This document shows, piece after piece, positions 40,098 to 60,874 of a DNA stretch of 64,000 nt (its first letter is position 1; the number at the start of each line of letters is the position of its first letter). Origin of the DNA: Escherichia coli (GTDB taxonomy: Bacteria > Pseudomonadota > Gammaproteobacteria > Enterobacterales > Enterobacteriaceae); assembly GCF_001677475.2 (NCBI RefSeq), contig NZ_CP015229.1; one strand, 5' to 3'. The notes beneath the pieces were generated by a model. That model saw nothing but the letters and a program-made list of their open reading frames with translations, was not told the DNA's origin and made no database searches. Made by a program: the position numbers and the translations under genes.

Positions 40098-40224
40098 AAC
40101 GGTTGTCAGATTCTCGTTAGGATATGCCTCAACATATGGGGGCATATCTCTGATAAGCAATGCTGTTCATTATCCGTAATCGACATGGTTTAGCAAATTG
40201 AATCGCCCCGGCTGGGGCGATGGC

Positions 40225-48962: not shown

Positions 48963-49753
48963 TTAACGTCCCCTGTGTTACCTTTCGTTTTATCACGAGC
49001 AATAAGCTGGCTGGCAATAACCATCACCAGCGACAGCACCAGTAATATGGTTGCCAGCGCGTTAACTTCCGGCGATACGCCGACTTTGACCATCGAATAA
49101 ATTTTTAACGGCAGAATTTCATAACTTGGTCCGGTGACGAACGAAGAAACTACCACATCGTCCATCGACAGGGTAAAGCTTAACACCCAGCCCGCCGCTA
49201 CCGCTGGCATTGCCAGTGGCAGAATGATTTTTCGCAGAATGGTAAATTCGCTGGCACCGAGATCTTTCGCCGCTTCCAGCATTCGCACGTCAAAACCTTT
49301 CAGGCGCGAATACACTGTCACCACCACAAATGGCAGGCAGAAGGTGATATGCGAGAACAGCAGCGACCAGAAGCCAAGCTGAATACCCAGCAGCATAAAC
49401 AGCACCAGCAGCGAAATCGCCATCACGATATCTGGTGACATCATCACTACAAACAGCATTCCGCTAACGAACGGCTTACCACGAAAGCGATAACGGTACA
49501 GTGCAACTGCCGTCAGTGAACCGATAAGCGTAGCAAACGTCGCCGAAAACACCGCCATTGTTAGTGAATGCTGCGCTGCCTGTAACAGGCTGTCGTTGTT
49601 CATCAGCAGGCTATACCATTTGGTGGTAAAACCCTGCCAGTTGATGCCAAAGCGCGAGCTGTTAAAGGAGTTCACAATCAAAATAATGATTGGGATATAC
49701 AGGTACGCGTAGATAGCGGTCATAAAACCGCCGCGAAGCAGTCGACCGATCAT
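48959..49753 (-). CDS. potC: Spermidine/putrescine ABC transporter permease PotC
   Basis: 264-aa ORF starting MIGRLLRGGFMTAIYAYLYIPIIILIVNSF, full length. Confidence 0.97.
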   Translation of the reverse strand: MIGRLLRGGFMTAIYAYLYIPIIILIVNSFNSSRFGINWQGFTTKWYSLLMNNDSLLQAAQHSLTMAVFSATFATLIGSLTAVALYRYRFRGKPFVSGMLFVVMMSPDIVMAISLLVLFMLLGIQLGFWSLLFSHITFCLPFVVVTVYSRLKGFDVRMLEAAKDLGASEFTILRKIILPLAMPAVAAGWVLSFTLSMDDVVVSSFVTGPSYEILPLKIYSMVKVGVSPEVNALATILLVLSLVMVIASQLIARDKTKGNTGDVK

Positions 49754-49776
49754 TCGAGTTCCACCTTCTTATTCAT
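49750..49776 (-). pseudogene. potB: 3'-terminal remnant of potB at the prophage junction (attL core lies here or just upstream)
   Basis: The minus-strand frame ends ...(M)NKKVELE then TGA, overlapping the potC ATG. This matches the PotB C-terminus as I recall it (...SRLLNKKVELE). The frame is closed upstream by TAA at 49873-49875, so only the tail of potB is present. Confidence 0.6.
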
Positions 49777-49819
49777 AAGGCGGGACACTTTCAGGATTTT
49801 GAATTTATTCAATTTTTTC

Positions 49820-49856
49820 CTTTCTCCAAAATCTCTCCAAAACGTTTCCCCAAAAC
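49820..49856. repeat. Three direct repeats in the phage arm next to attL; candidate Int arm-type sites
   Basis: Plus strand reads tctccaaaa (49823-49831), tctccaaaa (49834-49842) and ttccccaaaa (49846-49855). Confidence 0.4.
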
Positions 49857-49919
49857 TAGGCCACGCATTTTACAACACTTTTTTCCTGAGATGGTGACGG
49901 ATATTCCATATGGTGTTTG

Positions 49920-51038
49920 TCAAATAACCAACTTAACCCATTCCTGACCTCGAGTATCGTTATAGCGATCGGTGGTTGCCTGGACTTTATGTCCTAGTAA
50001 TGTTTTTGTATCGATACCCTGTGCACGGTACAGCCGTTCTGATAGAGAGCGTTGTTCATGAAATGTTGGCGGAGTTTTTCCTGCTGGTGGAATTATCCCA
50101 GCCAGATCCCGTGCTTTGGCAAAGTAGTCGCTCAGGTTGTCTTTACTCATCGACTTCGGTTGTTTCTGGTGCCGACTATGGATTAGATATGGACTTAATA
50201 TTCTGTCTCGGCACCCATCAATAACTTCTTTTAACGTTATCCCAATGGCATCACAGCGTAGTGTAAGCGGTAACGCCAGACGCATTCCGGTTTTTCCTTG
50301 GGTGATATGCAAGTGTTCGTTCCACACATCTGAAAAACGCATGTGGCAAATGTCATCACGGCGCTGACCAGTAACAATCGCAAGAAGCATTGCGTTACGG
50401 ATAAAGTGTTTTTCAGGCGTTGCGTTGTAAATTTTTTGCCAGTCTTCCAGGGTGAGTCTGGCTCTGGTTACTTTAGGGATTGGTTTACGGGTAGCCTCCG
50501 GAGGATTCCATCCAGGAGGAACTTCCCCTGCATGCTGTGCTTCTTTATAAATATCAAGCCATAATCCGCGATTTACTCTCGCTGTGCTGACCATGTCTTT
50601 ATCCAGCCACTCATCCAGTATTAATGCAAAGTCTCTTACTTCCAGTTCTTTCAATGGGTGGTTTCCCAGACGGGAAACCAGGAATGCAGCCATTCGCGCT
50701 TTTTCTTTGTGGGTTGTAGCTGCAATATCTCCATTTTTCAGGCGCGCGTCCTGTATTTTCAGATATCGATCAACCCATGCCTTTAATCTGATACCCCGAC
50801 GTTTTGTTGCTGATGGACTTTCATCAATTTTGCGCATGAAATATTCAGCTTCTGCTGCAGCTATTCGCTGATTGGCTGTGGAAGCGATTTTTTCTGCCTT
50901 ACCTTTGTCTGTTCCGAGTCCGTGAAATTTTCCAGTCACAGGATTTTTATACTGGTAGTAAACTCTGCCAGTTCTGCGATCAAACTTTTCGTAAAGACCG
51001 GCTACGTCAGTGCTGTTTTTTCGTGGCCTCGGTGACAT
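49920..51038 (-). CDS. int: Tyrosine integrase (lambda Int family)
   Basis: 372 aa. It has an N-terminal arm-binding-type segment (YYQYKNPVTGKFHGLG) and C-terminal catalytic residues (...HEQRSL..., GHKVQATTDRYND with the Tyr). Confidence 0.93.
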   Translation of the reverse strand: MSPRPRKNSTDVAGLYEKFDRRTGRVYYQYKNPVTGKFHGLGTDKGKAEKIASTANQRIAAAEAEYFMRKIDESPSATKRRGIRLKAWVDRYLKIQDARLKNGDIAATTHKEKARMAAFLVSRLGNHPLKELEVRDFALILDEWLDKDMVSTARVNRGLWLDIYKEAQHAGEVPPGWNPPEATRKPIPKVTRARLTLEDWQKIYNATPEKHFIRNAMLLAIVTGQRRDDICHMRFSDVWNEHLHITQGKTGMRLALPLTLRCDAIGITLKEVIDGCRDRILSPYLIHSRHQKQPKSMSKDNLSDYFAKARDLAGIIPPAGKTPPTFHEQRSLSERLYRAQGIDTKTLLGHKVQATTDRYNDTRGQEWVKLVI

Positions 51039-51276
51039 GAGTTAAAATCTCCTTCAGTGCATCATCATCGCCAGTATGAATTTCCGGCGCAATTCCCGTT
51101 TCACCAGGCCCAACAAATACTGCTCGGCGATCTATCAGCCAACGCCCACGAATTTTTTGTGGTCTTGGAACGATGTATCCTAGTTTTCCGTATTTCACCA
51201 GGGTAGTGTTTGTTATTGGGAGACTGAACCGTTTTGGTTTCCACTCGTCGAGCGTTATCAGGTACTGTTCGCTCAT
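51007..51276 (-). CDS. xis: Excisionase-like protein
   Basis: 89 aa starting at MSEQYLITLDEWKPKRFS...RWLIDRRAV, a lambda-Xis-like pattern. It overlaps the int start. An SD GGAG lies upstream. Confidence 0.7.
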   Translation of the reverse strand: MSEQYLITLDEWKPKRFSLPITNTTLVKYGKLGYIVPRPQKIRGRWLIDRRAVFVGPGETGIAPEIHTGDDDALKEILTHVTEATKKQH

Positions 51277-51337
51277 GGCTATCACTCCGGAACGCGCCAG
51301 TTGCAGAATATCAACGACAACTGGCGACGGTTGAACA

Positions 51338-53809
51338 TTAAAAATCAGCCTGATTCGGGATCAGTTTTTGCCAGATAGCTGAAACGTATTTTGCCTGGTG
51401 ACGAGCGTCATCAAGTGCATTATGGCGCTCACCTTCGAATGGGATAGCAGTTCTGGCATCGAAGTCTATGGTTTTCCCCAGCTCAACGATTGTGCGTACA
51501 TCGCGATCGTTGTAGTAACGCCACGGGCAGGGGATCCCCTGCCGTTCGTATGAACGGCGCAAAATCGTGTTGTCGAAGTTGGCTCCATTTCCCCAGACCT
51601 GAACAAAAAACTCACCGGAGTTTTCGGCGATAAATTCCCGCAATTGCAGTAGTGCATCATCTAACGGGATTTCATCGGTCATAATGGCAGACTGCGCTTC
51701 ACGTGATTGCTTCAGCCACCATTTAATGACGTCACGATCAATGACTCCGCCAGCAGTATCCAGATCGATGGTCTTGCTAAATTCCGGTCCCATATCACCG
51801 GTTTGCGGATCGAAAAATATTGCACCTATTGAGATAATCGGGGCATCAGGATTTTTTCCCATGGTTTCAAGGTCGATCATCAGATGAATCCCCGCTCTGC
51901 TGGTGGATGTGAGATTATGATGACTGTTCATCTTAATTAAGGGATCTGTCGCCTCGCCAGTTTTATTATCGCTGGCGTGATGCTGATTGCCGCCAGGGTT
52001 CTCCTTGTGTGGATGTTCAGCGCCTTCCATTTCCTCCGGATCATTTTCCTGAACTTCAGGCTGATTCTCTTCATCGAATATTTCCTGGTATGTTGCGTCA
52101 CCCATCACCGCGCCACAATCAGGGCAGTTGCCGCCACCGCTCTGACCGCAGGCTGTGCAGACTTTTTCCGGTTCCTGTTGCGCTACTGGCTCAGGTTGTT
52201 TCGTTTCTGGCTCGTTTTGTTGCGTATTTGGGCTGTTTTGTTCCGCTTTCTGGTCGTTCTGTTCCGTTTCTTGCTGGTTCTGGTTCACAGAATCGCGGGT
52301 TTCAATCCCCTTCACCCATTTCGGATCATTCGGATCGCTAATCCCTGCAACAAATTCACCACGTGATACTGCAAGCAGTTCATCGGCGTCATGCTGGCTG
52401 ATATTGGCTGCCTGCATAATTTTGTTTACTTCGTCAGCGGTAACTTTTACCGGCCCTGGTTGTGCGGTCGTGTCAGATGCACCAGTATTTTGTTGTGAAC
52501 CTGAGTATGTACCGTTTTTGCGGGCGAAATATTCTTCTTTCGTGATTTCAGTAGCCCCGGCAGCCAGTGCCTTATCCAGACCAGAAAGTTTGTTTGCGCG
52601 ACCGTATTTTTCGCCATCCTTGTCGGTGAAGAGGAAGTAGAATGGCCCCTCACGCTCTACAGATGGTTCGACTTCCACTTTGCATTCGGTTTTTTCGTTG
52701 TCCGGAATTGCCGTTTCCACTGCATCAGTTTCTGGTACTGGCGACGAGAGAGTATCAGTTGCGCTCTGATTTCTTCCTTCATCTTCAAACACGCCCTTTG
52801 TAGTCAGGTATTCAGTAATGTATTTGTTCAGTGCCACAGGGTCTTTGTGAATGTCGATCGGACGTTCACGAACAAGGCCAAAAATAGTCTGGCGGTCGTA
52901 GCGAAGGGCATCAGGCTGTTTGCGCATTGATGCCGAGATACGCTTCCAGTCTTCGCGGTCGTTGTCGATAACTTCATTTTTTGCCCAGCGATGGATGCTG
53001 CCATCAATGTTTCCGACATCCACATCACCAGGCCAGAGAGCGTAGGCCAGTTCGTCATCCAGTGTTTTCCATGTCTGCTTGTATTCGCGATGAGTGGCAG
53101 CAATGACCGGGCTGATTTTTCCTGTTGAATTTTCAGTGTGCTGTTGATTGGCTCTGGCGCGGGCGAGATCAACAACAGACGTGTATTTTCCGGTTTCCTT
53201 GCGTTCACCTTCGCGACGTTTTTTCCAGATGCGCATCTCTGCCTGAATTTCGGGCCATTTGGCACCAGGCTTACATTTATGCTTAACCCACCCGATGGCA
53301 TGCAGCTTAAGCTCCGGATACATGGCGTTAACTTCTGGCATTTTCATCAACGCTTCAACGATATGTCCGTCGAATGTTGCCATGTCTTCCTGCAACAATT
53401 CCTGCGCGCTAATCACCATATCAACGGTGATGTTTTCACATGTACCGAACTTAACCAGGACCGCGTTCTGTACTTCAAGGGACAGCTTGTCAAAATTGAC
53501 GTTAATAGGATCGGATTCTGGTTCGACCGGAATAAAGGAAGCGGATTCCTCATCCCAGCGGTTTTCCTGCATATATTCGGTATCCCAGGAGTCGATAGCA
53601 GGGCGGGGCATGCCGGGTTTATCTTCGCAGACAAGAAATTTATAAGCGCAGTCCTGAGCAGCAGGATATTGCTCCAGGAATTGCCAGGTAAATTTGGCAC
53701 GGGCGCGGCGTTCATCACCGGCTTCAATGGCAGTGGCTACAGCAACTGCGCCCTCTTCTTTTATTGCCTGTTCGTCCGGAATGGCGGCGCAAATAAAGAC
53801 TTTACTCAT
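51338..53809 (-). CDS. 823-aa multidomain protein: YdfE-like N-terminal region, low-complexity linker, zinc ribbon, C-terminal DEDDh 3'-5' exonuclease domain
   Basis: The C-terminus carries exonuclease motifs MIDLETMG, WGNGANFD and HNALDDARHQ. A CTACGQSGGGNCPDCG ribbon lies at about 52108-52162. The N-terminus MSKVFICAAIPDE... resembles my recollection of K-12 Qin YdfE. Confidence 0.8.
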   Translation of the reverse strand: MSKVFICAAIPDEQAIKEEGAVAVATAIEAGDERRARAKFTWQFLEQYPAAQDCAYKFLVCEDKPGMPRPAIDSWDTEYMQENRWDEESASFIPVEPESDPINVNFDKLSLEVQNAVLVKFGTCENITVDMVISAQELLQEDMATFDGHIVEALMKMPEVNAMYPELKLHAIGWVKHKCKPGAKWPEIQAEMRIWKKRREGERKETGKYTSVVDLARARANQQHTENSTGKISPVIAATHREYKQTWKTLDDELAYALWPGDVDVGNIDGSIHRWAKNEVIDNDREDWKRISASMRKQPDALRYDRQTIFGLVRERPIDIHKDPVALNKYITEYLTTKGVFEDEGRNQSATDTLSSPVPETDAVETAIPDNEKTECKVEVEPSVEREGPFYFLFTDKDGEKYGRANKLSGLDKALAAGATEITKEEYFARKNGTYSGSQQNTGASDTTAQPGPVKVTADEVNKIMQAANISQHDADELLAVSRGEFVAGISDPNDPKWVKGIETRDSVNQNQQETEQNDQKAEQNSPNTQQNEPETKQPEPVAQQEPEKVCTACGQSGGGNCPDCGAVMGDATYQEIFDEENQPEVQENDPEEMEGAEHPHKENPGGNQHHASDNKTGEATDPLIKMNSHHNLTSTSRAGIHLMIDLETMGKNPDAPIISIGAIFFDPQTGDMGPEFSKTIDLDTAGGVIDRDVIKWWLKQSREAQSAIMTDEIPLDDALLQLREFIAENSGEFFVQVWGNGANFDNTILRRSYERQGIPCPWRYYNDRDVRTIVELGKTIDFDARTAIPFEGERHNALDDARHQAKYVSAIWQKLIPNQADF

Positions 53810-53902
53810 TTTGTTTTAACCTCATTACAGATTTAAGGGTGAACAAATCCCTGCCATTGCTGGCATATAAAAATGAAACCGGATATTAATTACGGTGCTG
53901 TT

Positions 53903-54094
53903 TTAAAGTCCTGCCGGTATTTCGTTATTATTAGTGTGAGTAGTTTTATCTACCGGATAACAGTTACCGGGAATTTTTTGTTCTGCTGCTGCAGCCATGC
54001 ATTCTTTCATTGAACCGTATAAGCCAGTCACCAGCTCAAGAGATTCGCCGGAAACAAGATAAACTGTCAGAACGAGTGCAAATGTTGTATTCAT
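53903..54094 (-). CDS. ydfD: YdfD-like small membrane (lysis-associated) protein
   Basis: 63 aa starting MNTTFALVLTVYLVSGESLELVTG. It has an ATGA overlap with the dicB homologue, as in the Qin dicBF operon. Confidence 0.75.
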   Translation of the reverse strand: MNTTFALVLTVYLVSGESLELVTGLYGSMKECMAAAAEQKIPGNCYPVDKTTHTNNNEIPAGL

Positions 54095-54279
54095 TGTTTA
54101 TATCCTTTTTGCAGCAGGTCCAGACGAGCCAGCATTGAAGGAATGCATACTTCATTTAACAGGTCCTGCTCGAGTTTTCTCTGCTTAATGGCGTCTTCAA
54201 TAAATGTTTTGTCTCCAGTGATAACGCCAATTTCGAAACGAAGTTCAGACGTGCTGGCATTACATGATAACTTTTCCAT
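54091..54279 (-). CDS. dicB: DicB-like cell-division inhibitor
   Basis: 62 aa from the internal start MEKLSCNASTSELRFEIGVITGDKTFIEDAIKQRKLEQDLLNEVCIPSMLARLDLLQKGYKQ. It shares FEIGV, EDAI and SMLARL blocks with K-12 DicB. An SD GAGGA lies upstream. Confidence 0.8.
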   Translation of the reverse strand: MEKLSCNASTSELRFEIGVITGDKTFIEDAIKQRKLEQDLLNEVCIPSMLARLDLLQKGYKQ

Positions 54280-54449
54280 TATCGCGTCCTCAACAATGAA
54301 TTTTGTGATGCGGTGCCTGGTGCCTCCAGGTGACGTTAACCAGTTAACAATTAACGCAGGATACAGAGAATCCACCCATAACACTGTTTTTGGTTTTTAC
54401 TGTTCCGCGTGCGCTGAGCCGCATTCACCGCATCACAAAATTCACTTTT

Positions 54450-54508
54450 AAAAAAGGGCGGCAGAGCAGTCACGGAGTAAAACTGATACCGCCAAATGTC
54501 ACCAGAAT
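54450..54508 (-). ncRNA. dicF: DicF small RNA (ftsZ-targeting)
   Basis: The minus strand reads attctggtgacatttggcggtatcagttttactccgtgactgctctgccgcccTTTTTT. This is nearly identical to the K-12 DicF sequence I recall, including the terminator hairpin. It lies 170 nt upstream of dicB, as in Qin. Confidence 0.88.
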
Positions 54509-54821
54509 ATTGATAACAGAGGGCGTTGTAGCGGGGTTGTCACTTAAGCGTATGGTCAACCTGACAACCCGGTGTCCTCAACGGGGAAAGGCGTCCCTCC
54601 CACCCCCGCCATACTTACCGCCGCGCCATTTCGCGGGTCGCCACAACCGGAAGCGCACGGTCGAATTAAATTTAACGACACCGTGCAGTGAGACGAACTT
54701 CGCCGTGCGCTTTCGTGTTGTGTGCCTGCTTTTAACCACGTCAGGCGAGGTGGTTTCCGTCATTCCCCAACGACAGGAAATCTGTATAATCTGGGTATCC
54801 CCAACGATCCAAGGAAATCAT

Positions 54822-54923
54822 ATGACAGAGCAAAGAGCACAAGCAGGTGATGGTGTATGGACCGGGATGATATTCTTGACAGAATTTTTTATGGCTATTT
54901 TCTTGAGCAACTGTTTTCTGTAG
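54822..54923 (+). CDS. Candidate 33-aa upstream ORF with a hydrophobic C-terminus (speculative)
   Basis: MTEQRAQAGDGVWTGMIFLTEFFMAIFLSNCFL. A strong SD AAGGAA lies 5 nt upstream, and TATAAT (54785-54790) about 32 nt upstream. It overlaps the start of the 148-aa ORF in another frame. Confidence 0.3.
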   Translation: MTEQRAQAGDGVWTGMIFLTEFFMAIFLSNCFL

Positions 54924-55303
54924 CGACTGGTCGTCTCGATAAACTTCTCTCAGTAGTGAGTATTATCCTCGGTTCATCTGTCATTGGCGGATTCATTCCG
55001 GAAATTTCTGGCGTTTTTATTGTTGTGATCGCAACCGTCCAAACGATTTATGGATTCGGACAAAAGTCAGGTAATACCATGAGAAAATCCGCAGAATATT
55101 TGCAGCTTTTTGATGATGCAGAAAAATATTCTGATTCGGAATTGAAAATTCAGTTAAAAACTCTGGAAAAAACAGATGATCATATTTGGTCATCACTTAA
55201 AGATATTGCGATCTTAAAAACACAGATCAAAATAGGCGTCTCCATCGAACAACAAGAGAAGTTGCCCACAAAATCCAAATTGATGCGATTTCTTTGTGGT
55301 TAG
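54857..55303 (+). CDS. 148-aa two-transmembrane-helix protein of unknown function (moron, opposite to the dicBF operon)
   Basis: A long ORF in AT-rich DNA, where stop codons should be frequent. An SD AGGTGA lies upstream. Two adjacent hydrophobic helices (LLSVVSIILGSSVIGGF and ISGVFIVVIATVQTIYGF) are followed by a charged helical tail of about 80 aa. Confidence 0.7.
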   Translation: MDRDDILDRIFYGYFLEQLFSVATGRLDKLLSVVSIILGSSVIGGFIPEISGVFIVVIATVQTIYGFGQKSGNTMRKSAEYLQLFDDAEKYSDSELKIQLKTLEKTDDHIWSSLKDIAILKTQIKIGVSIEQQEKLPTKSKLMRFLCG

Positions 55304-55392
55304 GAATATCCAGATTGTTAAAGAGCATGCCGGAGGTTTATCCGTGTCCGGCGCACGCACTTCATCTGCGGAGAACTACTTGAGCTCATTGG

Positions 55393-55608
55393 TCAGTAGT
55401 TTTCAATCACTCGCGAAACGTTTAATGCCGCGCTTTTTGCCAGAGTGGTAATATCCTGCTCCGCTGACACCAGTTCTTTAGAGAGGCGCTCTTTGTAGTC
55501 AGCGGCCTGCTTCAGGTCATTAATGGCGCGTATCTTTCCGCACATCCATTCGTAAATTTCATCCTCGGTATAGTCTGGTGCGATGATGACGGGTTCTCGT
55601 TTCTGCAT
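55393..55608 (-). CDS. ydfC: YdfC-like protein
   Basis: 71-aa ORF starting MQKREPVIIAPDYTEDEIYEW, in the position of ydfC in the Qin dicBF operon. Confidence 0.65.
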   Translation of the reverse strand: MQKREPVIIAPDYTEDEIYEWMCGKIRAINDLKQAADYKERLSKELVSAEQDITTLAKSAALNVSRVIENY

Positions 55609-55637
55609 ACTGATTCCTCGCGGTGCCGCTTCGCTTA

Positions 55638-55766
55638 TCAGCCGTTAGATTTTGCCGAACTGGAAAGCGCCTGTTTAAACTCACTGAAGCTGAGAGCTTC
55701 TTCGCCTTCGGCAAGGTCTTCGAAGTATTCTTCGTAAGCCTTTTCCATGATTGCGTCGAAATCCAT
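55638..55766 (-). CDS. ydfB: YdfB-like 42-aa protein
   Basis: Manual translation gives MDFDAIMEKAYEEYFEDLAEGEEALSFSEFKQALSSSAKSNG. It is below the ORF-track size cutoff and replaces the implausible basic 70-aa ORF 55559..55771. Confidence 0.7.
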   Translation of the reverse strand: MDFDAIMEKAYEEYFEDLAEGEEALSFSEFKQALSSSAKSNG

Positions 55767-55767
55767 A

Positions 55768-55923
55768 TCACTCACCTGAATTTCTTTCCAGCCAGCGACG
55801 AGCGCCAGTTTCGGTTTTAAACGTTTTACTTTTGGTATACGTCATCGCGGTGAATGTGCCGTCCTGGTTGGGAAACACGCCGTACACCAGAGATTCGTTG
55901 TTGCCAAGATCGATAGTATCCAT
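55768..55923 (-). CDS. ydfA: YdfA/YdaF-like (DUF1391) 51-aa protein
   Basis: Internal start MDTIDLGNNESLVYGVFPNQDGTFTAMTYTKSKTFKTETGARRWLERNSGE, with an SD GGGGAAATGAGG upstream. Confidence 0.7.
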   Translation of the reverse strand: MDTIDLGNNESLVYGVFPNQDGTFTAMTYTKSKTFKTETGARRWLERNSGE

Positions 55924-56104
55924 GTTGACCTCATTTCCCCTTAACGCTGGGGTAGCGGAACTAAAAACCTGCTGCGCTGTTATACAAAGTGTTCCCGCCG
56001 TCATGTTCATACGCCTCGGGCTGGCTACTTAATCCCTGACCACTACCGGGTAACTCTAGGTATTGCCCTGTATTGTGTGGGACGGGATGGGTTGGTATGG
56101 GAAA

Positions 56105-56147
56105 ACTATAGGAAATGCCTAATTGCTTGTCAATAGGCTATGCCTAA
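56105..56147 (-). promoter_or_regulatory. PL-like promoter with OL operators
   Basis: On the minus strand: TTGACA (56128-56133), 17-nt spacer, TATAGT (56105-56110). Operator-like 15-mers ataggctatgcctaa (56133-56147) and ataggaaatgcctaa (56108-56122) overlap it. Confidence 0.6.
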
Positions 56148-56241
56148 TGATTTGGGTGCGACCTAATAGGTGATGGTTTGTGGGAGAGGTAGTAGGAGTT
56201 AACTAACGGGAACTAGGAATTTCCCGTCGGACCATATAAGT

Positions 56242-56718
56242 TTAAGTTCCTGTCTTGGTGATGTTCTGGCTTTTCCGTTTTGATTCTTGATTTTTCAGAT
56301 AGTTAGCTACCTTCATTTCCATTGCGGCAATGTAGGCGCGAACGTCATGATCAACCCAACTAGGCTCCGTAGCATTTCCAGATAAGAGGAAAGCCACAAT
56401 TGCTCTTTTTTCATCAGAGGCGGCTTGATAAAGGCTGTTTATGTCTAAAAGTTCACTTTTTGTATCTGAAGTGGATGGGGTTGGTATGGGGTATTCGTTA
56501 AGCCCCCAATGCTCTGGACCAACCACATCAGAAAAGAAACGCCATAGTTCTGGAAGTTTGTCTTTACTTATCGAACCTTTCTTAATCCAGTCATGGATTG
56601 ATGGTGGTTGGACTTTGAAATGACGTGCGATTTCCGCCTTTGATTTGACGGCTCCTGATGCAATTTTTTTGTTAATGGCCTGCTCTATCGCTCGGCCTAA
56701 GTCTTTACCACTAAGCAT
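56242..56718 (-). CDS. racR: Prophage repressor, RacR-like
   Basis: 158 aa starting MLSGKDLGRAIEQAINKKIASGAVKSKAEIARHFKVQPPSIHDWIKKGS (HTH). It is divergent from the ydaS/ydaT homologues, as in Rac. Confidence 0.8.
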   Translation of the reverse strand: MLSGKDLGRAIEQAINKKIASGAVKSKAEIARHFKVQPPSIHDWIKKGSISKDKLPELWRFFSDVVGPEHWGLNEYPIPTPSTSDTKSELLDINSLYQAASDEKRAIVAFLLSGNATEPSWVDHDVRAYIAAMEMKVANYLKNQESKRKSQNITKTGT

Positions 56719-56746
56719 TGCTTAATAGTCTCCTATGCGCATCGCG

Positions 56747-56815
56747 TTAGGCAATACCTACTCTCGAAGCGTTAGGCATAGCCTATTGACAATCACATTA
56801 GGCTAAGCCTAATAT
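56747..56815 (+). promoter_or_regulatory. PR-like promoter with three OR operators
   Basis: TTGACA (56786-56791), 18-nt spacer, TAATAT (56810-56815). The 15-mers are ttaggcaatacctac (56747-56761), ttaggcatagcctat (56772-56786) and ttaggctaagcctaa (56798-56812), spaced 25-26 bp. Confidence 0.6.
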
Positions 56816-56842
56816 TATTGTGTGTTTTTTGGAGTTCATTCG

Positions 56843-57166
56843 ATGAAAAAAGATAACTATTCATTCAAACGAGCTTGTGCTGTTGTCGGTGGGCAATCAG
56901 CAATGGCTAGGCTTTTAGGTGTATCTCCTCCAAGCGTAAATCAATGGATCAAAGGTGTACGTCAGTTGCCTGCTGAGAGATGTCCTGCGATTGAACGAGC
57001 AACAAAAGGTGGTGTCCTGTGTGAAGAACTTCGTCCTGATGTTGATTGGACATACTTACGACGCTCGTCATGTTATTCGCAGAATATGTCGATGAAGCAA
57101 CCAAATGACGAAAACGATCATACCCGAAGCATCAAGAGGCAAATGATTCATGAAAATCAAACATGA
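56843..57166 (+). CDS. ydaS: Cro-like HTH protein, YdaS-like
   Basis: 107 aa from MKKDNYSFKRACAVVGGQSAMARLLGVSPPSVNQWIKG. An SD GGAG lies 8 nt upstream. Confidence 0.75.
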   Translation: MKKDNYSFKRACAVVGGQSAMARLLGVSPPSVNQWIKGVRQLPAERCPAIERATKGGVLCEELRPDVDWTYLRRSSCYSQNMSMKQPNDENDHTRSIKRQMIHENQT

Positions 57167-57575
57167 GCATATCCGCATGGCGATGAATGCCTGGGCATAC
57201 CCTGATGGTGAGAAAGTTCCTGCAGCTGAAATAGCCCGGACTTATTTCGAACTGGGAATGACGTTCCCGGAACTGTACGACGACAGCCATCCGGAAGCCC
57301 TGGCCCGTAATACCCAGAAAATTTTCCGTTGGCTGGATAAAGACACCCCTGATGCTGTTGAAAAAATGCAGGCTCTGTTACCGGCGATCGAAAAGGCGAT
57401 GCCGCCTTTGCTGGTGGCCCGTATGCGCAGCCACAGTTCTGAGTATTACCGTGAGATTGTCGAACGGAGGGATCGGTTGGTGAAAGATGTCGACGATTTT
57501 GTTGCGTCAGCGGTTGTTTTGTATGACCAGATGAATCGCGGCGGCCCGGCAGGAAATGCCGTGGTGATGCACTAA
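57150..57575 (+). CDS. ydaT: YdaT-like (CII-position) protein
   Basis: 141 aa starting MKIKHEHIRMAMNAWAYPDGEKVPAAEIARTYFELG. It follows ydaS, as in Rac. Confidence 0.75.
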   Translation: MKIKHEHIRMAMNAWAYPDGEKVPAAEIARTYFELGMTFPELYDDSHPEALARNTQKIFRWLDKDTPDAVEKMQALLPAIEKAMPPLLVARMRSHSSEYYREIVERRDRLVKDVDDFVASAVVLYDQMNRGGPAGNAVVMH

Positions 57576-57597
57576 CAGCACGGTGTTCGGGGGTTTT

Positions 57598-58566
57598 ATG
57601 AGCAGCAAGCTTCATGGTCTTGTCTGGGAAGGATGCGCCTTCACCGGCATGATCTTATCCCGGGTGGCAGTGATGGCCCGTCTTGCAGACTACAGCAATG
57701 ACGAGGGCGTGTCATGGCCTGCTATTGAAACTATCCGGCGTCAGATCGGTGCAAGAAGTGAATCCACAGTGAAATCGGCTATTGCAGAACTGGCGAAAGA
57801 GGGCTGGCTGACGAAGGAAGAGCGTAAGGTCGGTGGGCGTAATGTAAGCAATATCTATCGGCTTAATGTGGAAAAACTCGAAGCAGCAGCTGCGGCGGCG
57901 CGTGAGTCATATAAACCGAAAAGAAAAATTAGCCCGGCAAAAAATGACCCGTTAACAGTTGACCCGTCAAATATTGACCCCTCAACGGTTGACCCGTCAA
58001 ATTTTGATGGATCAACTGTTGATAAAAAACTGCCGATTAGGGGGACGATGATTGACCCCGATCAGTCAGTATTAAAACCTGATCCGTCAGATGAAAGATC
58101 TTCTTGTCCTGACGTTTCACTGCCGGACAAAAAACAATCATCACCAGTTGAGCGATTTCTGGAGAAACACCCGGATGCGCATACCTGGAATGTGCAGAAG
58201 CGACAGTGGGGTACCCGTGAGGATGTCGCCTGTGCGCAGTGGATTTGGGGACGGGTTGTTGCGTTGTATGAACAGGCCGCCAGTGATGATGGTGAGGTAT
58301 CACGCCCCAGAGAACCTAACTGGACGACCTGGGCGAATGATGTGCGCATGATGCGTATGCTGGATGGACGTAGTCACCGGCAGATTTGTGAAATGTTTGG
58401 GCGTGTCCAGCGGGATTCGTTCTGGGTAAAAAACATCATGAGTCCGGCAAAACTCCGGGAAAAATGGGATGAGCTGGTTATTCGTCTGGGGCGTTCGCCT
58501 GTACAGCGTTGCGTGAATCACATTTCTGAACCGGATACCGAAATTCCGCCGGGGTTCAGGGGGTAA
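57598..58566 (+). CDS. Replication initiator O-like protein (YdaU-like, N-terminal wHTH)
   Basis: 322 aa from MSSKLHGLVWEG. It contains the internal iteron array, which encodes DPLTVDPSNIDPSTVDPSNFDGSTVD. Confidence 0.75.
   Translation: MSSKLHGLVWEGCAFTGMILSRVAVMARLADYSNDEGVSWPAIETIRRQIGARSESTVKSAIAELAKEGWLTKEERKVGGRNVSNIYRLNVEKLEAAAAAARESYKPKRKISPAKNDPLTVDPSNIDPSTVDPSNFDGSTVDKKLPIRGTMIDPDQSVLKPDPSDERSSCPDVSLPDKKQSSPVERFLEKHPDAHTWNVQKRQWGTREDVACAQWIWGRVVALYEQAASDDGEVSRPREPNWTTWANDVRMMRMLDGRSHRQICEMFGRVQRDSFWVKNIMSPAKLREKWDELVIRLGRSPVQRCVNHISEPDTEIPPGFRG
57945..58019. repeat. Five tandem 15-bp iterons (candidate phage origin) inside the O-like gene
   Basis: tgacccgttaacagt, tgacccgtcaaatat, tgacccctcaacggt, tgacccgtcaaattt and tgatggatcaactgt, at exact 15-bp phasing. 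Degenerate copies occur at 58053 and 58080, with an A-rich stretch in between. Confidence 0.7.
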
Positions 58567-58608
58567 GTGCTGATTTGAGGTCATGAAGTTATTTTCTCAG
58601 GAGAGTTT

Positions 58609-59010
58609 ATGGGGGCTATTTATACCGAAGAACAGCGGGAAAGGTTACAGCGTCACATCGTTGACCTTGTACGTAAAAACGGGCGTATGACAATGCCACA
58701 ACTGGCATCGGCAACATATGCTTCACATGATTCCATTCGCCGGTACCTGAAGATGCTGGTGAGCCAGGGCGAAGTGTATGTTGTCAGCGGAAAAGGGGTA
58801 TTCCTTTCAGAGAGAGTTTACCGTGAATGGCTGGCAAGTTCGGCAAAAAAATCAAGGGTTATCCGCAAACCAGCACAAAAACAGGGTAAGGCCGGAGTAC
58901 AACCCTACGACCGGCACCAGAACGTAATTTGCCGGGAATGTCGTAACAGCGAATCAATGCAGCGGGTACTGGCTTTTTACAGGGGTGGATTTCAGGAGCT
59001 CGTATCGTGA
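58609..59010 (+). CDS. Hypothetical winged-helix-like protein
   Basis: 133-aa ORF starting MGAIYTEEQRERLQRHIVDLVRKNGRMTMPQLASATYASHDSIRRYLKMLVSQGEVYVV. Confidence 0.6.
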   Translation: MGAIYTEEQRERLQRHIVDLVRKNGRMTMPQLASATYASHDSIRRYLKMLVSQGEVYVVSGKGVFLSERVYREWLASSAKKSRVIRKPAQKQGKAGVQPYDRHQNVICRECRNSESMQRVLAFYRGGFQELVS

Positions 59011-59315
59011 AAAAGTGGGTGCGTGCCGAGATACTGATTCTACGGCAGTGTGCGGGAACAATGACGGTGGAATGCATCGGGATGCTTATTGGTCGTAGTG
59101 AGGCTGCGGTCAGAACGAAAGCGCGGGAACTGGGTATTAGTATGATGTTACGGGGTGATTATCACCAGTCAGCAAAATATCCGCAGAGTGATATTGAGCT
59201 GGCGCGACAGCTGCATCAACGTGGCGTGTCCAGGAGAGAAATCGCCAGAAAATTTGGAATGCCGCTGCGCACAGTGAATAACTACGTTTATTTCGACAGG
59301 AGGGTGTCTGCGTGA
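59007..59315 (+). CDS. Hypothetical HTH protein (two sigma-region-4-like HTH repeats)
   Basis: 102-aa ORF containing IGMLIGRSEAAVRTKARELGIS and REIARKFGMPLRTVNNYV. Confidence 0.6.
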   Translation: MKKWVRAEILILRQCAGTMTVECIGMLIGRSEAAVRTKARELGISMMLRGDYHQSAKYPQSDIELARQLHQRGVSRREIARKFGMPLRTVNNYVYFDRRVSA

Positions 59316-59557
59316 AAATCCTGTATCAGGATTACGGCCCGGTGGGACAGGTGGTTATCAGCAGTACTGTAATGGAGTTCCGGAAGCATAACCGTGTGGT
59401 GGATGCAGTGCTGTTAGCCTGTCCGGGGATATCGGCGAGCCGTGCAGGTGTGTTTTTTATGAAGACGAAGTTATATGGCAGTACAGCGTGGATAAAGAAG
59501 GCGTACCGGGTAGCGTTGCAGGAGGTAAACAGTGAGCGAATCGGCAACCATTCTTGA
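59312..59557 (+). CDS. Hypothetical phage protein
   Basis: 81-aa ORF translationally coupled to its neighbours. Confidence 0.5.
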   Translation: MKILYQDYGPVGQVVISSTVMEFRKHNRVVDAVLLACPGISASRAGVFFMKTKLYGSTAWIKKAYRVALQEVNSERIGNHS

Positions 59558-60020
59558 TATGTCCTGTGGCAGTCGTATGTTCTGGTTCGATAAGAATGAC
59601 GACCGGGCGATATTTAGCGATATCAGAAAAGAAGAGCACACATTATGTGATGGACGACGCCTGATAATTAGCCCTGACCTGATAGCAGATTTTCGTGCAT
59701 TACCATTTGCAGACGCATCGTTTCCGGTTGTTGTATTCGACCCTCCGCATCTTGAGCGTGTTGGTGATAACGCCTGGATGGGAAAGAAATATGGACGGCT
59801 GAATAAAGATACCTGGCGTGATGATTTGCGGCAGGGATTTAAAGAAGCCTTTCGTGTGTTGTGGCCACACGGTGTTCTGATTTTTAAATGGAATGAAACG
59901 CAAATACCTGTCCGCCAGATATTGGCACTAACCGACGCGAAACCAATCATCAGCCAGCGCACCGGTAAGAACGATAAAACACATTGGATTATTTTTGTGA
60001 AGGAAGCGACCAGTGGGTAA
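59532..60020 (+). CDS. Small SAM-dependent methyltransferase, putative orphan DNA (N6-A/N4-C) methyltransferase (GTG start)
   Basis: 162 aa with a motif I-like ILDMSCGSRMF and a motif IV-like VVFDPPH. A strong SD AGGAGG lies upstream of the GTG. There is no adjacent endonuclease gene. Confidence 0.65.
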   Translation: MSESATILDMSCGSRMFWFDKNDDRAIFSDIRKEEHTLCDGRRLIISPDLIADFRALPFADASFPVVVFDPPHLERVGDNAWMGKKYGRLNKDTWRDDLRQGFKEAFRVLWPHGVLIFKWNETQIPVRQILALTDAKPIISQRTGKNDKTHWIIFVKEATSG

Positions 60021-60267
60021 ATCAAAATGCCAGGTTTATGGCAACAAGATAGAACCGTGTACGGCACTGGCAAACTCCCTTGAGCATGATGCTGAATACA
60101 CGACGCGAAAAGGTCTGCTGATATACGAAATCTGGAATGAGAGTTTAACTCGCGGCCCTGATTTGGTGATGTTGCGATCCGGTGAATTTTCTAAATCACC
60201 AGTTCGGGTTTCATTTTTCCCGTTCTGCGGTGAAAGTCTGAAAACGTGGGAGAACAGAAATGAATGA
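60013..60267 (+). CDS. Hypothetical phage protein
   Basis: 84-aa ORF with a GTG start and an SD AAGGAA 7 nt upstream. Confidence 0.5.
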   Translation: MGKSKCQVYGNKIEPCTALANSLEHDAEYTTRKGLLIYEIWNESLTRGPDLVMLRSGEFSKSPVRVSFFPFCGESLKTWENRNE

Positions 60268-60571
60268 AATTAGAGAAATACCAGTAGAACGTGATGAATA
60301 TGGCTGCTGGACACATCCAGAATATGAAAAATTCTGTGACGGTCGGGAATATATTTCAACGGAAGAGTTTAACGCCTGGATGAAGGAAAATAATCTTCAG
60401 TGGACTATTTGCAGCATGGATGAAGATTATTTAAATCCGGTTGCAGATGACCCCGATATTTCCGCCTGGGAACCGGAACGACCAGAGGGCGAAGGCTGGT
60501 TTATTAGCTCCATTCATGATACTGAAGATGGTCCGGTTTGTGTCTGGTTGCGAAACAAGGTGATGGCATAG
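60260..60571 (+). CDS. Hypothetical acidic phage protein
   Basis: 103-aa ORF coupled to its neighbours. Confidence 0.55.
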   Translation: MNEIREIPVERDEYGCWTHPEYEKFCDGREYISTEEFNAWMKENNLQWTICSMDEDYLNPVADDPDISAWEPERPEGEGWFISSIHDTEDGPVCVWLRNKVMA

Positions 60572-60874
60572 ATGAGAATAGAAAAAGCGAAAGCACAGCT
60601 CAGGATAATGCTTGCTGGTCCGGCTGCGAGTTATATGACACATTCACCAGCCATAAAGAAGGTTCTTGATGAACTGGAAGCCAAAGACAAGCGCATTGCA
60701 GAACTGGAGGCGAGGGAAATCCAGTTACCTGCTGGCTTCGACCTTCGATATGGACACCCGATAAATGCTGATGAGCGACATGTGATGATACCTAAAGAAA
60801 ATGGCAACTGGATTTATCGGACTGACTTAGAGCACGTACTACGTGTTGCAGGGATTCGAATTAAAGGAGACTAA
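60572..60874 (+). CDS. Hypothetical phage protein (coiled-coil segment)
   Basis: 100-aa ORF; the ATG immediately follows the previous stop. Confidence 0.55.
   Translation: MRIEKAKAQLRIMLAGPAASYMTHSPAIKKVLDELEAKDKRIAELEAREIQLPAGFDLRYGHPINADERHVMIPKENGNWIYRTDLEHVLRVAGIRIKGD

Follow-up and report, generated by a model that had tools for sequence, protein, structure and literature searches.

A putative leftward promoter, PL, mirrors PydaS across racR in a Rac-type Escherichia coli prophage with a Qin-type dicF-dicB arm

Introduction

In phage lambda, operators of the same consensus flank the CI gene in inverted orientation, with one operator overlapping the -10 hexamer and the next overlapping or abutting the -35, and neighbouring operators lie 23–24 bp apart. 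Here we describe a Rac-type prophage locus of Escherichia coli in which a comparable arrangement surrounds the repressor gene racR, at positions 56105–56815 of a 64,000-nt stretch (the window) of contig NZ_CP015229.1, assembly GCF_001677475.2. An original prediction, made by a model from the letters of the window without database searches, had read this region as mirror-image leftward (PL) and rightward (PR) promoters, built from a shared 21-bp promoter-operator module on either side of a ‘RacR-like’ repressor gene, with one repressor gating both the ydaS/ydaT and replication arm and a division-inhibitor arm. We consider it very probable that the locus is the immunity region of a Rac-type prophage, organised in the manner of lambda, with a single repressor, RacR, gating a PR-like and a PL-like promoter.

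The right side of this region has been studied in the Rac prophage of E. coli K-12. Krishnamurthi et al. 2017 (PMC5700373) described, between racR and ydaS, three GCCTAA/TTAGGC repeats, and reported three complexes in electrophoretic mobility shift assays (EMSA), enrichment in chromatin immunoprecipitation and a reporter that RacR repressed. In the study of Wisniewska et al. 2022 (PMC9638921), primer extension revealed one start for ydaS, three promoters were mapped for racR, and the PydaS -35 (TTGACA) and -10 (TAATAT) were assigned, mutation of the latter abolishing activity. In their DNase I footprints the PydaS region was protected by RacR first, at the lowest concentration, and the operators O1–O3 were defined as (T/A)TAGGC-n3-GCCTA(T/A), O1 covering PydaS and O3 having its spacer on the racR ATG; the K-12 site corresponding to O3 is also an off-target site of the C.Csp231I protein (PMC9638921). 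On the left, a decrease of RacR in K-12 raises ydaF, ydaG, ydaE and racC about 40-fold and kilR about 70-fold (PMC6765115), and a 2026 preprint reports that the same leftward genes are induced when Cascade is bound at racR position +3 or +58. Our locus resembles K-12 Rac in its repressor (92% identical), operator consensus, PydaS hexamers with their 18-bp spacer, the site at the racR ATG and the left module, and differs from it in its replication genes and in its left arm, which is ydaG-ydaF-kilR-racC-recET in K-12 and a Qin-type ydfA-ydfB-dicF-dicB array here.

In the Qin prophage, operator sets at dicA-dicC and dicBp flank the repressor gene (Ragunathan et al. 2023, PMC10448788). As in Qin, the immunity repressor here is followed by a putative same-strand PL-type promoter for the ydfA-ydfB-ydfC-dicF-dicB type of operon, but DicA (135 amino acids), its operators and its promoter are unrelated in sequence to those of our locus, and the leader is ~80 nt long in Qin against ~175 nt here. 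The prophage CP-933P provides a reporter-tested example of mirror-image design, its PL933P having -35 and -10 hexamers identical to those of PR933P as well as three left operators, OL1-3 (Jurenas et al. 2021, PMC8630535), and its YdaS binds sites that overlap (PMC8630535). CP-933P shares with our locus both this design and a ydaS-ydaT right arm; it differs in its repressor, PaaR2, in its 18-bp palindromes (consensus GTTTAGTAA) and in a toxin-antitoxin pair cotranscribed with the repressor gene. With lambda the locus has in common the inverted operator sets around the repressor gene and an adjacent-operator spacing of ~2.3–2.5 helical turns. The operators are, however, 15-bp rather than 17-bp palindromes, RacR is without an S24 peptidase domain, and racR adjoins PL with no rexAB-like genes between them.

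Operators and promoters on both sides of racR

The sequence TTAGGCATAGCCTATTGACAA occupies 56772–56792 on the plus strand and recurs as its exact reverse complement at 56127–56147, one position wider than first predicted (from 56128), and the inverted repeat grows to 29 nt at 90% identity (56124–56152 / 56767–56795). No match to the 21-mer was found in 100 dinucleotide shuffles of the window, even with three mismatches permitted. All but one of its 21 positions are explained by a 15-bp operator and the remainder of a -35, the operator ending on the first T of a consensus TTGACA in each copy, which bears out the predicted fusion of the two. With at most two mismatches, the palindrome TTAGGC-N3-GCCTAA is found at 56108, 56133, 56747, 56772 and 56798 and only once more in the whole window, at 40117, five of the six sites being packed into 705 bp. 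At three mismatches, 22 operator-like 15-mers were observed in the window against 23.2 expected from shuffles, which is the level of chance; what stands out is how good the sites are and how closely they cluster, and not how many there are. A scan of 55700–57200 for the sigma-70 consensus returned exactly two promoters, one on each side of racR, and these have the same geometry: one operator, placed between the hexamers, shares 3 nt with the -10, and the end of a second operator is the first T of the -35. Start-to-start spacing of the operators is 25 bp on the left, and 25 and 26 bp on the right.

The right-hand promoter, PydaS (the PR equivalent), spans 56786–56815 on the plus strand, with TTGACA (56786–56791) and TAATAT (56810–56815) separated by 18 bp and matching the consensus at 10 of 12 positions. 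The operator over it, equivalent to the published O1, is a perfect palindrome between the hexamers (56798–56812, TTAGGC-TAA-GCCTAA). The right copy of the mirrored module abuts the -35 (56772–56786, TTAGGC-ATA-GCCTAT), and an extra, weaker operator with two mismatches lies at 56747–56761 (TTAGGC-AAT-ACCTAC). The promoter and these three operators are as originally predicted, to which should be added a site that the prediction left out, an operator-like palindrome over the racR start codon (56711–56725, CTAAGC-ATT-GCTTAA, three mismatches), which is the equivalent of O3 and is invariant in our conservation set of distinct sequences. Indeed, the features that define the published K-12 operators are found here at 56798, 56772, 56747 and 56711, including those over PydaS and the racR ATG. 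The proposed comparison with the K-12 racR-ydaS region shows 93% identity, with every half-site, the two hexamers and the 18-bp spacing between them kept, so the right half is already experimentally established in near-identical sequence; the centre of the perfect operator differs at all three bases (TAA here, GTC in K-12). The EMSA, footprinting and start mapping that the prediction put forward as checks have thus been done by others for the right side in K-12 (PMC5700373, PMC9638921), and its statement that TTAGGC was not a described RacR operator does not hold, the repeat having been reported in PMC5700373 and defined as an operator by footprint in PMC9638921.

Two further observations concern the right side. 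The segments 56745–56769 and 56770–56794 (CGTTAGGCAATACCTACTCTCGAAG / CGTTAGGCATAGCCTATTGACAATC) form an apparent 25-bp tandem duplication that includes the 56747 operator. The third operator of E. coli Rac-type loci thus apparently comes from a tandem copy. Outside Escherichia, only two operators lie in the interval from the ATG site to ydaS: in the Mixta, Proteus, Achromobacter and Nitrosomonas relatives and in a metagenome-assembled genome (MAG), TTAGGCAATTCCTATTGAC is followed directly by the perfect operator and there is no tandem copy. The -10 hexamers of the K-12 racR promoters are not kept here (56727–56732, 56762–56771). At PracR3 the hexamer is GAGACT, the majority form among 40 distinct sequences, where K-12 has GAGAAT, and the PracR2 -10 of K-12 (AGTAAG) falls in a fully variable spacer that reads TTCGAG here. 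Judged from these hexamers, racR promoter use may differ between Rac variants.

On the left, the putative PL spans 56105–56133 on the minus strand, with TTGACA (56133–56128) and TATAGT (56110–56105) separated by 17 bp and matching the consensus at 11 of 12 positions; this promoter and its two operators, already present in the original prediction, were recovered by our promoter and site scans. The left copy of the mirrored module, an OL2-type operator abutting the leftward -35 (56133–56147, ATAGGC-TAT-GCCTAA), is kept in four relative loci, and an OL1-type operator (56108–56122, ATAGGA-AAT-GCCTAA) lies between the -35 and -10, with a 3-nt overlap of the latter. K-12 Rac carries the same left module in its ydaG-racR interval. 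The searchable Rac literature (PMC9638921, PMC5700373, PMC11014345, PMC6765115, PMC11879457, PMC12482147 and Jobling's letter) contains no explicit description of operators or of a promoter past the 3' end of racR, although an earlier one may exist, most likely in Conter et al. 1996 (PMID 8752325).

The clear OL sites here number only two, and a third left operator at 56152–56166 is uncertain. The candidate region, 56152–56171, holds a possible degenerate OL3, TTGGGTGCGACCTAA (56152–56166, three mismatches), and, overlapping it, the palindrome ACCTAATAGGT (56161–56171); the equivalent site in phage vB_EcoS-683R6 is TTAAGCGTAACCTAA, with two mismatches. ACCTAATAGGT lies in the 3' region of racR, just upstream of OL2, and is nearly invariant (2 of 11 columns vary, minor-allele fraction 0.012), while the 13 bp between it and OL2 are variable. 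Its half-sites are reversed (tail-to-tail) relative to those of the operators, and it could be either a degenerate OL3 or the site of another protein.

Conservation of the two modules

To follow the two modules we used 82 loci at a RacR identity of at least 90%, which yielded 40 distinct sequences for the right side and 45 for the left. In this footprint set the half-sites and promoter hexamers have minor-allele fractions of only 0.00–0.008, the putative PL hexamers being invariant, and the left half of OL1 reaches 0.041; the inter-operator spacers and the O1 centre have fractions of 0.13–0.25. Inverted identity of at least 21 nt (21–23 nt exact) is found in 61 of the 82 loci, and the other 21 share only 12–18 nt. 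In K-12 Rac the two copies have 14 exact nt in common, and both sites are nevertheless kept. Operator centres also differ independently between the two sides across the 82 loci (ATA/GCA, ACA/ATA, TTA/ATA and others). The predicted shared 21-bp module therefore does not stand as a unit: judged by these loci, the 21-mer as such is not selected, and what selection keeps is the arrangement, one operator abutting the -35 and one overlapping the -10.

Both modules are also kept in Mixta mediterraneensis (repressor 64% identical), a Pseudomonadota MAG (58%) and Proteus mirabilis (61%), where the flanking DNA is unalignable and the geometry of operators, -35 and -10 is the same. On the left side of these three loci a minus-strand TTGAC(A/T) is fused to ATAGGC-N3-GCCTAA and accompanied by a second operator, with a -10 of TAATAT or TAACAT at 17-bp spacing. 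Both modules are present in the deposited phage vB_EcoS-683R6. An Achromobacter prophage, whose 366-amino-acid repressor has a RacR-type N-terminal domain, has the operators of the right-hand set and two more, spaced by 25 bp, 1.4 kb beyond the repressor gene. We looked in the divergent repressors' loci for a half-site change covarying on both sides and found none, the half-site being TTAGGC in all relatives.

The N-terminal DNA-binding domain of RacR (65–78% identity over ~77–93 residues) is joined to different, longer C-terminal regions (147–366 residues) in Achromobacter, a Nitrosomonas MAG and an Aeromonas MAG. The Achromobacter and Nitrosomonas loci keep TTAGGC-N3-GCCTAA operators, including the start-codon site; the Aeromonas MAG locus showed none. 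Where the operators are kept, the RacR domain and the operator code travel together across proteobacterial classes, and the code is stable across Enterobacterales and extends to Achromobacter and Nitrosomonas prophages.

Repressor and flanking genes

The gene enclosed by the two operator sets (56242–56718, minus strand) encodes a 158-residue protein that is identical to K-12 RacR (b1356) at 145 of 158 positions (92%) without gaps and reaches 246.8 bits with NF049929, the RacR equivalog of NCBIfam (cutoff 200, E = 8.8e-74). ‘RacR-like’ gave the right type and understated it: by identity and equivalog score the repressor is RacR itself. A Pfam scan of RacR gave no match, the S24 peptidase domain being absent, and a sequence search of the PDB returned no meaningful relative. 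racR is divergent from a pair of genes resembling ydaS (Cro-like; 56843–57166, plus strand; Pfam PF15943, 3.8e-30) and ydaT (cII-like; 57150–57575, plus strand; PF06254), multiple operators overlap the PR-like promoter between them, and a replication-initiator-like gene lies to the right of the pair.

Leftward, the first gene of the operon is a ydfA-like DUF1391 gene (55768–55923, minus strand, from Pfam and annotation), followed by ydfB (55638–55766, minus strand, from annotation and the Qin alignment), the two being 95.5% identical to Qin. A 71-residue open reading frame (ORF) on the minus strand lies between ydfB and the small RNA DicF (54456–54507, minus strand; Rfam RF00039, 77 bits against a gathering score of 48), beyond which is the cell-division inhibitor gene dicB (54091–54279, minus strand; NCBIfam NF049927, 123.7 bits, cutoff 100). 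The predicted presence of DicF and DicB in the left arm is thus borne out by Rfam and NCBIfam, and ydfA, ydfB, DicF and dicB all lie on the same strand, downstream of the putative RacR-controlled promoter. The minus strand continues past dicB with a DUF1482 gene, an exonuclease gene, xis and int. Unlike in K-12 Qin, the leftward array is interrupted by an opposite-strand ORF of 148 residues (54857–55303, plus strand), for which Pfam and NCBIfam gave no match. This ORF occupies the position of sieB in K-12 Rac, and from its location it may be a superinfection-exclusion analogue.

Proposed mechanism and alternatives

We propose that RacR dimers would bind the 15-bp TTAGGC-N3-GCCTAA palindromes flanking racR. 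At the perfect operator, whose centre lies at about -17 from the PydaS start, RacR would occlude RNA polymerase, and the neighbouring operator, with its centre 26 bp away, a spacing similar to that of the lambda operators, probably contributes cooperative binding; occupied right operators would then silence ydaS/ydaT and the replication genes, and the upstream right-hand sites, which extend to the racR promoters and start codon, would provide autoregulation. The PL-type promoter, ~95 bp beyond the stop codon of racR, has the same two-operator layout and would be blocked directly by RacR. Its transcript would run into the Qin-type ydfA-ydfB-...-dicF-dicB operon and then towards the exonuclease gene, xis and int, and both arms would be released at once if RacR were lost. 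That a transcript from PL would reach dicF and dicB, across ~1.6–2 kb and an opposite-strand ORF, is proposed because in Qin the polycistronic ydfABC-dicF-dicB transcript starts at dicBp (PMC10448788).

Conservation of the left module and the K-12 transcriptomics together argue strongly that it is likely to be functional. In particular, a Cascade roadblock at racR should stop read-through from the racR promoters, making an independent promoter downstream of racR the simplest explanation for the induction of the leftward genes. The predicted gating of both arms by one repressor can be divided: the lambdoid reading is supported, its right side is published and derepression of the two arms upon RacR depletion has been shown by others in K-12, while on the left RacR would bind the OL sites, PL would be active and its transcript would extend to dicF and dicB.

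Several points weigh against this proposal. In E. coli OL1 is degenerate, its ATAGGA half-site giving the operator two mismatches, and no direct binding, transcription start or reporter data for the left site were found in the searchable literature. PL is separated from dicF by the plus-strand ORF at 54857–55303 and by ~1.6 kb. YdaS is reported not to repress racR in K-12 (PMC9638921), so the switch is no simple copy of lambda, and silencing of kil has been ascribed to a Rho-dependent terminator inside racR that acts on transcripts from the racR promoters, with no PL invoked (PMC4150792).

The Rho literature, in which kil expression is read-through from the racR ‘PRM’ that is halted by t_rac (PMC4150792), would fit a left copy that binds RacR with no promoter of its own, serving as a distal auxiliary operator for long-range cooperation or racR autoregulation, with the leftward genes transcribed by read-through; cooperation between OL and OR in lambda (cited in PMC8630535) is a precedent. 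We think this improbable, given that the left hexamers match the consensus at 11 of 12 positions and are invariant, that the left -10, although it varies (TAATAT, TAACAT), stays good at 17-bp spacing in Mixta, the MAG and Proteus, and that the leftward genes are induced despite the Cascade block of racR transcription at +3 or +58. The distance between OL and OR also has no conserved helical phase across genera. The exact 21–23-nt identity in 61 of 82 close loci could instead reflect recent gene conversion or duplication, leaving a mirrored 21-mer that is a functionless relic on the left, but the left module survives in other genera, at 58–64% repressor identity and amid unalignable flanks, centres and spacers diverge where half-sites and hexamers do not, and K-12 keeps both sites with only 14 exact nt shared, all of which make a relic very improbable. 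Even more remote is a chance cluster of palindromes in AT-rich intergenic DNA; the three-mismatch count is indeed what shuffling predicts, but the absence of the 21-mer from the shuffles, the packing of five of the six good sites within 705 bp and the conservation across genera effectively refute it.

A more elaborate form of the RacR-gated PL/PR proposal is that this is a genuine, formally undescribed RacR-controlled PL/OL in which RacR oligomers would join the two operator sets, which lie ~640–690 bp from each other on either side of racR, in a repression loop like that formed by lambda CI octamers. We regard looping as possible but doubtful, the lack of conserved helical phase giving it no support while being indecisive at distances of more than 600 bp. 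If it is correct, loss of one small non-cleavable repressor would release two independent division blocks at once, that of YdaT in the right arm and that of DicF/DicB (KilR in K-12) in the left.

The locus belongs to the RacR immunity type and shows all the features of that type that can be read from sequence. The overall design is that of a textbook lambdoid OL/OR, which leaves the understanding of lambdoid switches unchanged and fills a gap in annotation, and what is new appears to be limited to the explicit placement of a Rac-type PL/OL and to RacR, rather than DicA, as the candidate regulator of dicF/dicB. The proposal would place the leftward early promoter of Rac-type prophages at a precise, testable position. 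Studies of racR essentiality have centred on ydaS/ydaT, with kil silencing ascribed to Rho termination of racR transcripts; if our proposal is correct, depletion of RacR in strains with this mosaic would free DicF and DicB in addition to YdaS and YdaT. The combination of racR with an adjacent ydfA-ydfB arm is found in at least 82 of 5426 complete E. coli genomes.

Mosaic structure and leader of the leftward arm

Alignment of the window to K-12 matches 55936–57173 to Rac at 86% identity, 55540–55962 to the Qin ydfA-ydfB segment at 95.5% and 53043–54733 to the Qin dicF-dicB-ydfD region at 87.8%. By these alignments the locus is a mosaic of a Rac immunity region and a Qin-type ydfA-ydfB-dicF-dicB arm. 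The short element GTTCCGC(T/C)ACCC(C/G)(A/G)GCGTTAAGGGGA, which contains a hairpin CCCC-N8-GGGG and is found at 55925–55962, lies directly upstream of the first leftward gene, this being ydaG in Rac and ydfA both in Qin and here, and in this window it marks the Rac/Qin recombination junction. None of the complete E. coli genomes in the collection compared is identical to the window. In E. coli 08-00022 (NZ_CP013662.1), identity to the window is 100% only over the immunity region (55300–57600), and is ~95.6%, with 45 gap openings, over the whole of 49294–60703. This confinement of perfect identity suggests that Rac-like prophages that have otherwise diverged exchange the immunity cassette as a unit.

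Between the putative PL and the start of the ydfA-like gene at 55923, a noncoding leader of ~100 nt (55993–56100, transcribed from the minus strand) is nearly invariant across RacR loci. It is matched at 81–90% in at least 10 phage records with no racR match, including those of Evi, Tritos, vB_EcoS-666R9 and an Actinobacillus phage, and in phage Evi, where the repressor is a different one, it lies downstream of the repressor and again heads the leftward operon. A structured RNA was considered and rejected for want of evidence, the fold z-score being +0.61 and the only Rfam hit a spurious microRNA match (E = 0.13). The 5' end of the leader is C-rich and G-poor, resembling a Rho utilisation (rut) site, and from its distribution the leader looks like a portable PL-leader element.

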